In this document: piece after piece, positions 36,805 through 41,494 of the stretch
Layout of the letters: each line of letters opens with the position of its first letter
Numbering within the stretch: the stretch's first letter is position 1
NCBI GenBank assembly: GCA_965116475.1
Contig: OZ220691.1
Span: forward strand, 1,824,001 to 1,888,000
Reading direction: 5' to 3'
Origin: Gemmatimonadota bacterium
GTDB taxonomy: Bacteria > Gemmatimonadota > Gemmatimonadetes > Palauibacterales > Palauibacteraceae
DNA length: 64,000 nucleotides
Translations under genes and position numbers: made by a program
Notes under the pieces: generated by a model
What the model saw: the letters and a program-made list of their open reading frames with translations, nothing else
Told to the model about the DNA's origin: nothing
Databases searched by the model: none

Positions 36805-37959
36805 TCAGTCGGACAGCACTCGGGTGAGCGTGTCCGCGACCTCGTCGATCTGTGTCTCGGTGATCACGAGGGGCGGCAGCAGCCGGATGACCGTGGTGCC
36901 GGCGGGCAGCGCGAGGGTGCCCCGCTCGGCGAGGGCTTCCAGGTAGGGGCGGCAGCGCTCGCGGAGTTCGACGCCGATCATGAGGCCGACCTGCCGCACG
37001 GCGCGCACGCGGGCCGACCCGTGACGGGCGAAGCGCTCGCTGAAGCGGGCGCCCAGCGCCTCGGCGCGCTCGTCGAGCCGCTCGTCCCGCATGTAGCGGA
37101 TCGCGGCCAGGGCGGCGGCGGAGGCGAGCGGGTTGCCGCCGAAGGTCGTGCCGTGCCGCCCGGGGGGCGGCTGCAGCCCTTCCTGCGCGAGGACCGCCCC
37201 CAGCGGCACGCCGCCCGCGATCGCCTTGGCGAGGCAGAGCACGTCCGGCGCGACGCCGTAGCGATCGCAGGCGAACATGCGGCCGGTGCGGCAGAAGCCC
37301 GTCTGGATCTCGTCGAACACCAGCACCGCACCGGCCTCGTCGCAGATGCGCCGCGCCGCCCGCAGATAGTCCCGGCTGGCCGGCCGCACGCCTCCCTCGC
37401 CCTGCACCGGCTCGACGATCACCGCCGCCGTGTCTTCGCTTACGGCCGCGCGCAGTTTCTCGATGTGGTTGAAGGGCACGAACGAGAACCCCGGCACGAG
37501 CGGCTCGAACGGCTCGCGATACTCCTTCTTGTGCGTCGCGCTCAGCGCGCCCAGCGTCCGCCCGTGGAAGCCGCGCATGGCGGATACCACGCCCGCCCGT
37601 CCCGTCGCGAGCCGCGCGAACTTGATCGCCGCCTCCACCGCCTCCGCCCCGGAGTTGCAGAGGAAGGCGCGCGTGAGTCCGGCCGGCGCGATCGAAACGA
37701 GTTCGGCCAGCAGCCGCGCGCGGACGTCGTTAAAAAAAATCCCCGGACAGGACACGAGCACGCGCGCCTGCTCCGCCACCGCCTCGGCCACGGCCGGGTT
37801 GGCGTGGCCGACGCTCGCCACGCCGATGCCGCCCACGCAGTCGATGTAGCGGCGACCCTCGTCGTCCCACACGCACGCGCCCTCGCCCCGGACGACCGCG
37901 ATGTCCCGCTTTGGAAAAACCTCGAGCGCGTACGCTCGTTCCAGCTCGCGGGCGTTCAT
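36805..37959 (-). CDS. lysJ: [LysW]-aminoadipate semialdehyde transaminase (class III PLP)
   Basis: [38 protein letters not shown] and HGTTFGGNP; in the lysW operon. Confidence 0.88.
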
Positions 37960-38768
37960 CCGATCACCGTGCCGCGTCCGGCCAGCGCCTCCGAGACCGG
38001 CCGTTCGATGCGCCCGTCCGCGATCACGACGCGGGTCGAGCCGGACTCCACCAGTCGGCGCAGTGCGAGCAGCTTGCGCTTCATGCGCCCCGTGACCTCG
38101 CTCTCCCGACGGGCAAGCTCCGCACGCGAAAGACGCGGGACGACCGACGCCGGATCGTCCGGGTCCTCCAGGAAACCGGGCGCCTCGATCAGCTGGATCA
38201 CGCGTTCCGCGCGCAGCTCCGCGCTGAGCAGGGTCACGACGTCATCGTTCTCCGAGTTGATCGCCACATTGCGTTCGTCGATCAGGGGAACGGTCACGAC
38301 CGGCGTGTAGCCGCCGCCGAGGAGCAGCCCCAGCAGCTCGCGGTTCACCTCCGCCGGCTTCCCGGACAGATCGCGCTTGATCAGCGTCTTGCCGCCCTCC
38401 CGCACGCGGATGCCCCTGTTGCGACGGCCGCGCACGAGCGCCCCGTCGAGCCCCGTGAGCCCGACCGCGTTCACGCCGTGACCCTGTAGCAGTTCGACGA
38501 TGCGCTTGTTGCGCACGCCCGCGTAGGCCATGAGCATCACGTCGATCAGGTCGCGGTCGGACTGCACGCTCTCGTGTCCGGACACCGACGTGAGGACGCG
38601 TTTCTCGACCCCGAGCCGGCGGGCCAGGGAGTCGCGCAGCGCGTTCGCGCCGTGCACGATGACGAACGGTCCGGCCAAGCCCGCCAGGTCGCGGACGATC
38701 CCGTCCAGGTTGATGGATGCTCCGCCGCCGATCTTGACGATGAGCAGCCCGCCGGACTCTCCAGGCAT
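37956..38768 (-). CDS. lysZ: [LysW]-aminoadipate kinase
   Basis: VKIGG, IVHGA, LTSVSG, GLTGLDG and GRMKRKL; in the lysW operon. Confidence 0.9.
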   Translation of the reverse strand: MPGESGGLLIVKIGGGASINLDGIVRDLAGLAGPFVIVHGANALRDSLARRLGVEKRVLTSVSGHESVQSDRDLIDVMLMAYAGVRNKRIVELLQGHGVNAVGLTGLDGALVRGRRNRGIRVREGGKTLIKRDLSGKPAEVNRELLGLLLGGGYTPVVTVPLIDERNVAINSENDDVVTLLSAELRAERVIQLIEAPGFLEDPDDPASVVPRLSRAELARRESEVTGRMKRKLLALRRLVESGSTRVVIADGRIERPVSEALAGRGTVIG

Positions 38769-38771
38769 CGG

Positions 38772-39431
38772 TCAGAACGTCCCGATCGCGCCGTTCGCGA
38801 CCGGCGTCCACGTTCGCCCCCCGTCCGACTCCGAATGCGAGTCCGGGTAGGGCGTCGAGCACAGGATCCGCACGCCGTCCCCCCGGGAGACATGCATCCG
38901 GAAGTAGTCCGGGTCCTCGCTGAACCGGGTTGCGAAGTGGACCTCCCCCGCCGCGTCGGCGACGACCAGGTTCATCGCCCGCACGTAACGGGTGCGCTTC
39001 TCGATCGCGTCGAGTCCCCGCTCCAGCGCAAGGCCCATGTCCCCGTCGGCGAAACGCTTCACGAAGTTGAACACCTTCTCCGCGCCGATCCGACCCCGCT
39101 CCTTGATGCGGACACCGTGCAACTCTCCGTTGAAGATGAAGGCGCGTTGCCCGTCGAAGAACGGCATGTTGTTCTCGACCCGTATCCCTTCCCCACGATA
39201 CGCGCTCCGCGCATGGGCGAGCAGCAGGGTCGTGCGACCGGTCGGCGCCGAGGCGTCCTCCCACACCGGCGAGATGTCACGGTGGAGGCGCCATCCATCG
39301 GCATCGATCCAGGCACACCCCCACCCGTCGCCCTGGTACTCGCGGCTCTCCCGGGCGAGTTGCGCAAAGGCGGCGAGGTGCGGCGCGATGTCGAAGGGCT
39401 CAACGCCGCGGACGCAGAGGATCCGGCACAC
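38772..39431 (-). CDS. Class II glutamine amidotransferase / Ntn hydrolase (EgtC/YafJ/Dug3-like)
   Basis: N-terminal (M)CR nucleophile, DGWG.AW, AHARSA, ENNMPF and FNGEL; stand-alone domain. Confidence 0.85.
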   Translation of the reverse strand: MCRILCVRGVEPFDIAPHLAAFAQLARESREYQGDGWGCAWIDADGWRLHRDISPVWEDASAPTGRTTLLLAHARSAYRGEGIRVENNMPFFDGQRAFIFNGELHGVRIKERGRIGAEKVFNFVKRFADGDMGLALERGLDAIEKRTRYVRAMNLVVADAAGEVHFATRFSEDPDYFRMHVSRGDGVRILCSTPYPDSHSESDGGRTWTPVANGAIGTF

Positions 39432-39453
39432 GATTCGGCTCGTTGCGTCGCGG

Positions 39454-40476
39454 TCAGGCCGGATGCAGCCCGGGGAACTCGAGCCCCCGCGACTCCGGCA
39501 ACCCGTGCATCACGTTGAATGCCTGCACCGCCTGTCCCGCCGCTCCCTTCATGAGATTGTCGATCGCGCTCAGAACCACGACCCGGTTCGAGAGCGGATC
39601 GCGCTCGAACCCCACGTCACAGTAGTTCGCGCCCGCCAGGAGGTTGGGGTCGGGATAGCGGTGGATGCCGCTCCGCTCCTTGACGATGCGCACGAACGGC
39701 TCGTCGGCGTACGCGCCGCGGTAGATCTTCCACAGCGCTTTCTCGTCCAGCTCCCGGTTCAGGAATACATGGCACGTGGCGAGGACGCCGCGCACCATCT
39801 CGACCGCCGTCGCGGAGAAATGCACATCGTCGCCGAGCACCGTCCGGATCTCGGCGGCGTGCCGGTGGCCCGTCGGCCGATACGACCGCATGGCGCCGCT
39901 GCGCTCCGGGTGGTGGCTGCCATCGCTGGCGCGGTTGCCGGCCTCGCTCGAGCCCACCTTCACCTCGATCACCGCCGAGTCCGCGACCCCCTCCCGGTAC
40001 AGCGGGAGCAGTCCCAGGATGGAGGCCGTCGCGTTGCAGCCCGCGCATGCGACGAGGTCCGCGCCCGCCAGCGCCTCGCGGTTCACCTCCGCGATCCCGT
40101 ACACGAACGATCCCAGCAGCTCCGGCCGCGGGTGCGGCCGGCCGTAGAAGCGCTCGTAGTCCGCGCCGTCCGGGAGCCGGAAATCCGCTCCCAGGTCGAC
40201 GATCCGGCGCGCCAGCGACCGGAACTCGTCGATGCGGCGCGACGACTCCCCGTGCGGGAGACAGAGGAAGAGCACGTCGCACTCCGACAGCTCGTCGAGC
40301 GCGCAGAAGCGCAGCCGCGTGACGCCGCGCAGGTTCGGGTGGACCCGCTGCGCGAACCGCCCCGCGAAGCGTTCCGAGGTGATCTGCCGCACTTCGACGT
40401 CGGGATGGCCGAGCAGAAGCCTCAGCAGCTCCCCGCCGGCGTAGCCCGACCCGCCCGCAATCGACGCGCGGATCAT
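39454..40476 (-). CDS. lysY: [LysW]-aminoadipate-phosphate reductase (ArgC family)
   Basis: [35 protein letters not shown] and [13 protein letters not shown]. Confidence 0.9.
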
Positions 40477-41333
40477 CGGTCCGCGGCCCGTTCCGAACGC
40501 TGCTCCGGCGAGACCGCGTACGACACGATCCTCTCCGGAATGTTCACGCCCGTCGCCTCGATGCTGTTCCTGAACTCCATCGTGTAGTTCACTTCGTTCA
40601 CGAGCAGTCCGCCCTCGCTCTCGAACAGGTCCACGGCGACCACGCCCCCGCCCACGGCCTCCGCCGCCTTCAGGGACAGCTCCCCGATCTCGCTCGTCAC
40701 GGGACAGTTCGACGCCGTTCCGCCGCGCGCCGTGTTCGTGATCCAGTGCGCGGAAGACCGGTAGATGGCCGCCACGCAGTCCTCGCCCACGACGAACGCG
40801 CGGATGTCGCGCCCGCCCTTCTCCACGTACTTCTGCACGAAGAAGATCGAGTGATGATAGCTGCCCAGGATCGCCTTGTGTTCGAGGACAGTCTCCGCCG
40901 CGTGCCGGTCGTTGATCCTCGACAGCAGCCGGCCCCAGGAGCCGACGGCGGGCTTGAGGACGACGGGATAGCCGAGTTCCTCGATCGCCTCGAGCGCGGA
41001 GGCCTCGGTGAACGCGACCCTGGCTTCAGGCTGCGGCACGCCGCATTCCCGAAGCGACGCCGCGGTGAGGATCTTGTCCCCGCAGCGACGCGACACTTCG
41101 TAGCGGTTGACGCAATCGAGGCCAGCCCCCTCGAACAGCCGCAGGGCGTGCATGGCGCGCGAATGGTTGATGCAGCGCTCGAGAACCACGTCGACGTCCG
41201 GGACCGTCCGGAAGTCGAACGAGAGCCTGCGGTCGTCCAGAAACACCAGCTCCACATCGCTGCGGCCGCGCAACTCCGCGATCAGCAGCTTCTCGTCCTT
41301 GCGGATGAGGGAATGAAGAAAACCGACCCTCAT
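40473..41333 (-). CDS. lysX: Alpha-aminoadipate--LysW ligase (ATP-grasp)
   Basis: [21 protein letters not shown] and [11 protein letters not shown] match Thermus-type LysX. ATGA overlap with lysW. Confidence 0.92.
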
Positions 41334-41494
41334 TCGCCCCAATCCTCCTCGGCGTCCGGCGCCTCACCGAGAGTGACAGGGTTGAGCGCAAGGATCTCCA
41401 GTTCGACGCCGCACTCCTCGCATTCGAGCAACTCGCCCTCGACGGGGTCGTCGGAGATCATCGGCTCCGCGTCGCATACGGGACATACCGGCAT
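41330..41494 (-). CDS. lysW: Amino-group carrier protein LysW (54 aa; absent from the ORF track)
   Basis: Manual translation [54 protein letters not shown]: two CxxC motifs and the EDWGE terminus. SD GGAGG. Confidence 0.95.

Follow-up and report, generated by a model that had tools for sequence, protein, structure and literature searches.

The 64,000-nt stretch of the Gemmatimonadota contig OZ220691.1 analysed here (positions 1,824,001 to 1,888,000 of the forward strand, assembly GCA_965116475.1; hereafter the window) carries an operon for amino acid biosynthesis on the carrier protein LysW. Inside this operon lies a gene for a protein of the N-terminal nucleophile (Ntn), class II glutamine amidotransferase-like type, the subject of this work and a candidate for the enzyme that releases the final product from LysW. 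In the list of open reading frames (ORFs), six genes follow each other head to tail on the minus strand in the order lysW-lysX-lysY-Ntn-lysZ-lysJ (Table 1). They are tightly packed, with overlaps of 13 bp between lysW and lysX and of 4 bp both between lysX and lysY and between lysZ and lysJ. The Ntn gene starts 22 bp after the lysY stop and ends 3 bp before the lysZ start. An earlier note on this DNA had described this order and these two gaps, and both are borne out by the ORF coordinates and the profile searches. The operon is of the LysW-pathway type, with a zinc-ribbon carrier ending in an EDWGE tail accompanied by LysX, LysZ, LysY and LysJ. LysX, LysZ and LysY/ArgC all exceed curated NCBIfam cut-offs. 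LysJ stays below the cut-offs of the LysJ equivalogs (481 versus 700 for LysJ_Th_th), and the argD subfamily level is the only one that it passes. LysW as called has 57 residues, ends in EEDWGE and reaches 50.4 bits with TIGR01206, under the cut-off of 53.2. Its true start may be the second ATG, which would give the 54-residue form of most relatives. The earlier note had placed the end of lysW at this ATG, at 41494, while the ORF as called extends to 41503. In this pathway LysX joins an amino acid to the gamma-carboxyl group on LysW's last Glu, LysZ acts on the LysW-bound substrate, LysY on the LysW-bound acyl phosphate and LysJ on the LysW-bound semialdehyde.

Table 1. Genes of the LysW operon, followed by three other genes of the window (window coordinates).
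Feature	Coordinates	Strand	Description
lysW	41330..41503	-	amino-group carrier protein, zinc ribbon, acidic tail EEDWGE; PF21344 Zn_ribbon_LysW 49 bits
lysX	40473..41342	-	ATP-grasp ligase; TIGR02144 LysX 335 bits (cut-off 276); RimK and LysX_preATP_grasp
lysY	39454..40476	-	ArgC-type reductase; TIGR01850 argC 377 bits (cut-off 234); semialdehyde dehydrogenase domains
Ntn / class II glutamine-amidotransferase-like gene	38772..39431	-	219 residues; putative LysW gamma-amidase; predicted mature N-terminus Cys2
lysZ	37956..38768	-	amino-acid kinase; NF010659 [LysW]-aminoadipate kinase 241 bits (cut-off 223); AA_kinase
lysJ	36805..37959	-	class III aminotransferase; Aminotran_3 E 7e-113; TIGR00707 argD subfamily 437 bits (cut-off 410)
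GPP34-cytochrome P450 fusion	29937-31994		
sterol-methyltransferase-like gene	within ORF 31571-33037		Sterol_MT_C domain
Rieske/KshA-type oxygenase	33061-34095	-	

The Ntn gene has a GTG start, and its product begins MCRILCVRG, with a Cys directly after the initiator Met. Pfam GATase_4, its sole Pfam match, is barely reached (25 versus 23 bits, residues 1-113 only), and this profile is poor for the family as a whole, 7 of 10 family representatives scanned having no Pfam match. A sequence search of the PDB matched only 3mdn (E 1.4e-6) and EgtC (E 3e-4). The AlphaFold2 model of the protein (predicted local distance difference test, pLDDT, 86.3; predicted template modelling score, pTM, 0.87) gave 71 PDB matches at E <= 0.001 with Foldseek. 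At the top are the EgtC structures 4zfl, 4zfj and 4zfk (E 1.6e-11, template modelling score 0.66-0.71, 21-23% identity), and the matched EgtC structures include forms bound to glutamine and to a gamma-glutamyl substrate. After them rank the glutaminase domains of GlmS and PurF, together with the orphan proteins 3mdn and 1te5. Model and Foldseek matches together display the four-layer alpha-beta-beta-alpha Ntn fold. The earlier note had called the protein an EgtC-like Ntn hydrolase, which holds for the fold only and fails at the level of the EgtC equivalog (NCBIfam TIGR03442), where the protein reaches 41.3 bits against a cut-off of 218.65 and is aligned over residues 34-109 only.

The family alignment comprises 75 sequences, with identity down to 22%. 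Arg3, Arg75 and Lys/Arg119 are found in all 75 of them, Cys2, His73 and Asn101 in 74 and Gly102 in 73. Arg75 and Asn101-Gly102 align with the corresponding motifs of EgtC and 3mdn. From the roles known in GlmS and PurF, we take Cys2 to be the nucleophile, Arg75 the residue that binds the glutamyl alpha-carboxylate and Asn101-Gly102 the oxyanion pair. By its sequence and its modelled structure, the protein resembles an active cysteine amidohydrolase whose substrates are gamma-glutamyl amides. Its relatives are numerous and carry no specific name. A word-indexed protein search gave 1667 of them at E <= 0.001, all unnamed or 'hypothetical'. An exhaustive profile search yielded 511 clusters (50% identity), of which 85 have E <= 1e-30; with few exceptions they are stand-alone proteins of roughly 200-250 residues. 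Names in the ESM Atlas are generic only, either 'class II glutamine amidotransferase family' or 'hypothetical'.

With one genome per GTDB species scanned, relatives of the Ntn protein turned up in at least 574 genome stretches. Neighbourhoods were counted in the best 80 of these, which are the most similar ones, fetched with 10-kb flanks (51 from Gemmatimonadota, 16 from Acidobacteriota, 12 from Pseudomonadota and one from Spirochaetota). The six window proteins served as tblastn queries to locate the lys neighbours. Of the 80 loci, 79 contain at least one lys gene. lysY lies less than 400 bp upstream of the Ntn gene in 78 (median gap 33.5 bp), lysZ less than 400 bp downstream in 71, and the full W-X-Y-Ntn-Z-J order is kept in 69. 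lysX is present in every locus that shows the upstream part of the cluster. The exceptions include one gammaproteobacterial clade with a dispersing cluster (L060, L063, L064, L070, L072, L074, L075 and L067), where the Ntn gene still adjoins lysY or lysX, in L067 directly after lysX; a few further ones are loci on truncated contigs. The same order recurs in relatives only 47-48% identical to the window protein, as seen from two read-through proteins with frameshifts, P0167 (Ntn + LysZ) and P0211 (LysY fragment + Ntn). Since it is found in 69 to 78 of 80 loci and in four phyla, the arrangement is far beyond chance. The place of the Ntn gene inside the operon is conserved, which strongly indicates a functional link. 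Going by their records, many of the genomes that encode a relative are marine or sponge-associated metagenome bins.

The LysW route to lysine or ornithine has been described with a single release enzyme, the M20 peptidase LysK. This ArgE homologue is a metallopeptidase that frees lysine or ornithine from the gamma-carboxyl on LysW's C-terminal Glu, as stated in passages of PMC12998189 and of a Deinococcus preprint. In the window, Peptidase_M20 had no match among the 46 different ORFs scanned, and the best tblastn match of Escherichia coli ArgE and DapE had an E of 0.082, which is noise; the statement of the earlier note that the operon contains no M20 peptidase was confirmed by both methods. 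For the window and the 80 loci together (1.58 Mb), the best ArgE/DapE match had an E of 0.011 over 33 residues, again noise. Peptidase_M20 was also absent from 170 neighbour proteins of the 80 loci, within about 10 kb, that were scanned with Pfam. Among these proteins were 67 representatives of neighbour families present in at least 2 loci, which remained from 97 cluster representatives after removal of lys, Ntn and antisense or very short ORFs. The others were 63 ORFs of six divergent loci and 40 singleton ORFs of 280-520 residues from the remaining loci. The ORF picker, based on GC content at third codon positions (GC3), is crude and chose some antisense ORFs, so the M20 question was also put to the frame-independent tblastn. 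The Ntn protein itself has no Peptidase_M20 homology. Separately, one Longimicrobiales locus, and no other, has a gene of the histone-deacetylase family (acetylpolyamine amidohydrolase-like) some 1.2 kb downstream of lysJ (L059:13841-14875).

As the released product, either lysine or ornithine would fit the sequence data. Homocitrate synthase, homoaconitase, diaminopimelate and arg genes were not seen among the window ORFs scanned or in the conserved flanks. An Rfam scan of the window gave zero families at gathering score, so there is no lysine riboswitch to indicate the product, and a promoter and terminator scan of the operon gave no signal above chance.

The earlier note had suggested a complex prediction with LysW, and this came out positive. 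When the alignments of the Ntn enzyme and of LysW were folded together, alongside three controls, the complex scored 0.69, 0.68 and 0.73, and the best of the three controls 0.02. Of 157 solved complexes, 116 reach the score mark applied, as do 2 of 215 mismatched pairs; this calibration is only rough here because our own alignments were used. The complex runs have at least 69% of their contacts in common, with a partner pLDDT of at least 80. The interface comprises residues 1-2, 75-78, 89, 100-111, 115-117, 119-120, 126, 142, 146 and 148 of the enzyme and residues 19, 21-26, 36, 48 and 51-57 of LysW. In the model, the last seven residues of LysW, including the terminal Glu, are placed on Cys2, Arg75 and Asn101-Gly102, and a basic loop of the enzyme (residues 103-111) faces Asp-Trp 54-55 and the globular domain of LysW. 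The prediction supports binding of the LysW tail in a catalytically sensible pose. To our knowledge, there is no solved structure of LysW bound to a protein of the class II amidotransferase fold that the model could be reproducing.

LysW itself provided a further element. In the 80 loci 77 LysW genes were found, 76 of them intact; in the remaining one (L050:7961-8257) the frame is shifted, giving 98 residues without the EDWGE tail, either by assembly error or because it is a pseudogene. The C-terminus is EEDWGE in 70 of the intact proteins and EEDWGQ in the other six (L060, L063, L064, L067, L070 and L074; for example L064:7819-7983). All six genes end in CAG TGA and differ synonymously in the preceding Gly codon, which indicates that the Gln end is inherited and is not a sequencing error. 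On the tree of the Ntn proteins, all entries with a Gln-ended LysW are found in one supported gammaproteobacterial clade of eight, and the Glu/Gln state requires two changes (L050, L065, L075, L076 and L078, without intact LysW, being left out). EEDWG is invariant in a LysW alignment of 32 sequences. Among 99 database relatives of the Gln-ended LysW, 37 end in Gln, 59 in Glu and one in Asp (P0333), and two are truncated. Four of the 37 Gln-ended LysW clusters have a longest contig of exactly the same length as that of an Ntn cluster (P0287/P0090, P0280/P0418, P0282/P0444 and P0326/P0411) among the 120 of 3111 Ntn matches listed, which weakly supports co-occurrence of the two. LysX activates a gamma-carboxylate, so a Gln-ended LysW must first be deamidated. 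A hydrolase of LysW-gamma-NH-R would do this as well, LysW-Gln being the case where R = H. No description of a Gln-ended LysW was found in the searched literature. Separately, the spirochaete locus L080 carries a tandem lysW pair upstream of lysX (L080:7623-7787 and L080:7941-8105), both ending in EEDWGE, and the two proteins may be separate carriers for two substrates.

We favour, with moderate confidence, the view that the 219-residue protein is an active Ntn amidohydrolase with an N-terminal Cys, and that it acts on the gamma-linked amide borne by LysW's C-terminal residue. It is probably a non-homologous replacement of LysK and would also be a LysW-Gln deamidase, as judged from sequence and models. 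After removal of Met1, Cys2 would attack the gamma-carbonyl group of the last residue of LysW. The amine would then depart, as lysine or ornithine from LysW-gamma-Lys or LysW-gamma-Orn and as ammonia from the Gln-ended LysW. Hydrolysis of the resulting LysW-thioester intermediate would yield free LysW-Glu, ready for LysX. The enzyme would thus do the job that LysK, an M20 metallopeptidase, does in Thermus and archaea, and in the gammaproteobacterial clade it would in addition activate the Gln-ended pro-form of LysW. The earlier note had proposed a new enzyme for the release of lysine or ornithine from LysW. This proposal is partly supported, by synteny, the fold and its catalytic residues, the lack of M20 genes in the 80 neighbourhoods, the complex prediction and LysW-Gln. 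In the searched literature, no paper was found that connects an enzyme of the Ntn, class II amidotransferase or EgtC type to LysW or amino-group carrier proteins. Within the GapMind 2026 preprint, the main text has 0 matches for lysK, amidotransferase and Ntn, and its supplements may bear on the point.

Several observations weigh against the proposed LysW amidase function or limit its firmness. We infer the substrate, the product (lysine or ornithine) and the absence of another release enzyme from circumstantial evidence, and the complex score is a confidence of the model, obtained from our own alignments, and not a measurement. By similarity, the 80 loci represent the top of at least 574, and other relatives, including those in the 511 clusters, may differ in context. 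One of the 80, L078, already carries the Ntn gene without any lys gene within 10 kb. The window protein has an isoelectric point of 6.4 and is not basic, as the partner of the very acidic LysW might be. In class II amidotransferases an acidic residue binds the free alpha-amino group of glutamine. The residue aligned to an Asp of 3mdn is at position 118, which is an invariant Glu in the operon subfamily and in the wide family of 75 is Gln in 35, Glu in 24 and His in 5. Glu118 may be a ligand for a free alpha-amino group, which would suit a small gamma-glutamyl compound better than a protein C-terminus. Finally, a lysK, argE or argJ gene may sit outside the searched loci; the lysine genes of the alpha-aminoadipate pathway are scattered in Deinococcus radiodurans, according to parts of the Deinococcus preprint.

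Two candidate arguments drawn from the sequence were dropped. Loss of the alpha-amino-binding Asp, with Ala117 as its counterpart, did not hold when the alignment with 3mdn put Glu/Gln118 at this place. Basic charge as a sign of partnership with LysW is not decisive: the family is mostly basic (median isoelectric point 9.0 in the close family, with 20 of 29 proteins above 8, and 8.3 in the wide family) and the window protein is not.

The enzyme could act only in maturation or repair of the carrier, by deamidating LysW-Gln and stripping wrong amines from LysW, with a canonical LysK or ArgE elsewhere releasing the product. LysW-Gln does exist, the complex prediction would suit carrier repair equally well, and the searches covered the window and the 80 loci of a pathway whose genes can be scattered. 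However, 70 of the 76 intact adjoining LysW already end in Glu, so a pure deamidase would have no substrate there, and the gene is still kept in these operons. In addition, none of the 80 neighbourhoods contains an M20 gene. We regard this explanation as unlikely. We think it quite improbable that the enzyme is instead a transferase, which would hand the LysW-thioester to a fresh glutamate or 2-aminoadipate in the manner of ArgJ, which recycles the acetyl group, and so spare the ATP of LysX. Ntn enzymes with acyl-enzyme intermediates can indeed transfer, as does gamma-glutamyltranspeptidase. The predicted interface lies at the active site, LysW-Gln could serve as an activated donor, and the Ntn gene stands between lysY and lysZ in 71 of the 80 loci. 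In the fullest form of this idea, which is equally improbable, the enzyme would be the hub of a self-recycling cycle in which the thioester, formed from LysW-gamma-Orn/Lys or from LysW-Gln, passes directly to the next glutamate or 2-aminoadipate, with LysX needed for priming only. However, lysX is retained in each locus where the upstream part of the cluster is visible, and there is no indication of an acceptor site in the sequence.

There is little likelihood that free glutamine, a gamma-glutamyl compound or another small molecule is the substrate and that the link to the operon is only one of regulation or chance: the closest solved relatives of the protein, EgtC, GlmS and PurF, do act on small molecules, Glu118 and L078 would agree with it and distant plasmid relatives occur in other contexts, but the internal, tightly spaced operon position across four phyla, the LysW complex prediction that passes its controls and the lack of any conserved partner synthase domain or other pathway gene near the Ntn gene (neighbour families of the 80 loci) all speak against it. 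The plasmid relatives are the only two matches in a plasmid collection (26-30% identity, Streptomyces and Embleya), of which one has a glutamate ABC transporter next to it and the other no annotation, and they are uninformative on the operon subfamily.

The proposed LysW amidase resembles several known systems in part. With LysK of Thermus and Sulfolobus it would share the reaction and the pathway step, without homology, an Ntn fold with a Cys nucleophile taking the place of a dinuclear metal site. The Ntn enzyme could deamidate a C-terminal Gln, whereas this would not be expected of an M20 enzyme whose recognition is directed at the departing amino acid. EgtC is the best structural match and shares the N-terminal Cys, the Asn-Gly motif and, as proposed here, the hydrolysis of gamma-glutamyl amides. 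However, the protein falls below the EgtC cut-off, and egtA, egtB, egtD and egtE were absent from the window ORFs scanned and the conserved neighbours. Moreover, EgtC acts on a small molecule in which the alpha-amino group of the glutamyl residue is free; here the glutamyl residue would be the end of a protein. The stand-alone class II amidotransferase-domain proteins 3mdn and 1te5, of unknown function, are also single-domain proteins of about 220-270 residues, and 3mdn is the closest by sequence; the family described here differs in being scarcely seen by GATase_4 and in its fixed LysW-operon context. A functional parallel is found in pupylation. Some actinobacteria encode Pup with Gln at its C-terminus, and Dop carries out both the deamidation of Pup and depupylation, according to sections of PMC8599861. 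In both systems Gln and Glu forms of the small protein alternate between lineages, and in both, as proposed here for LysW, one enzyme would deamidate the Gln-ended form and cleave the later gamma-glutamyl isopeptide. Dop differs in being glutamine-synthetase-like, nucleotide-dependent and unrelated to Ntn hydrolases. In function, Pup is a degradation tag for proteins and LysW the carrier of a biosynthetic intermediate.

With fair probability, the novelty here lies in the last enzyme of a known pathway, not homologous to its counterpart, and in a Gln-ended pro-form of the carrier. If this is true, at least 574 species-level genomes of Gemmatimonadota, Acidobacteriota, Gammaproteobacteria and others end the pathway with an unrelated cysteine Ntn amidase, which would clearly exemplify non-homologous enzyme displacement. 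Annotation of the pathway would also be rid of a systematic gap or 'hypothetical protein' call. Pup would be joined by the Gln-ended LysW as a second carrier or modifier protein that is synthesised as an amide pro-form and depends on its own release enzyme for activation.

Further observations concern other genes of the window. Three neighbouring genes at 29937-34095 resemble a bacterial sterol-modifying set (Table 1), and the same domain combinations occur in neighbour-family representatives from the related loci L008 and L021. A low-GC island at 3944-12868 (57-60% versus about 69% elsewhere) contains an AAA ATPase gene next to an S8 subtilase gene, a ThiF-like gene and a QueF-like gene, together with genes for a NotI-type restriction endonuclease, a C5 cytosine methylase and a Vsr nicking endonuclease. 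We read it as a probable mobile island for defence or restriction. At 105-1570, an AbiEi-like antitoxin (weak match) is paired with an AbiEii nucleotidyltransferase toxin.

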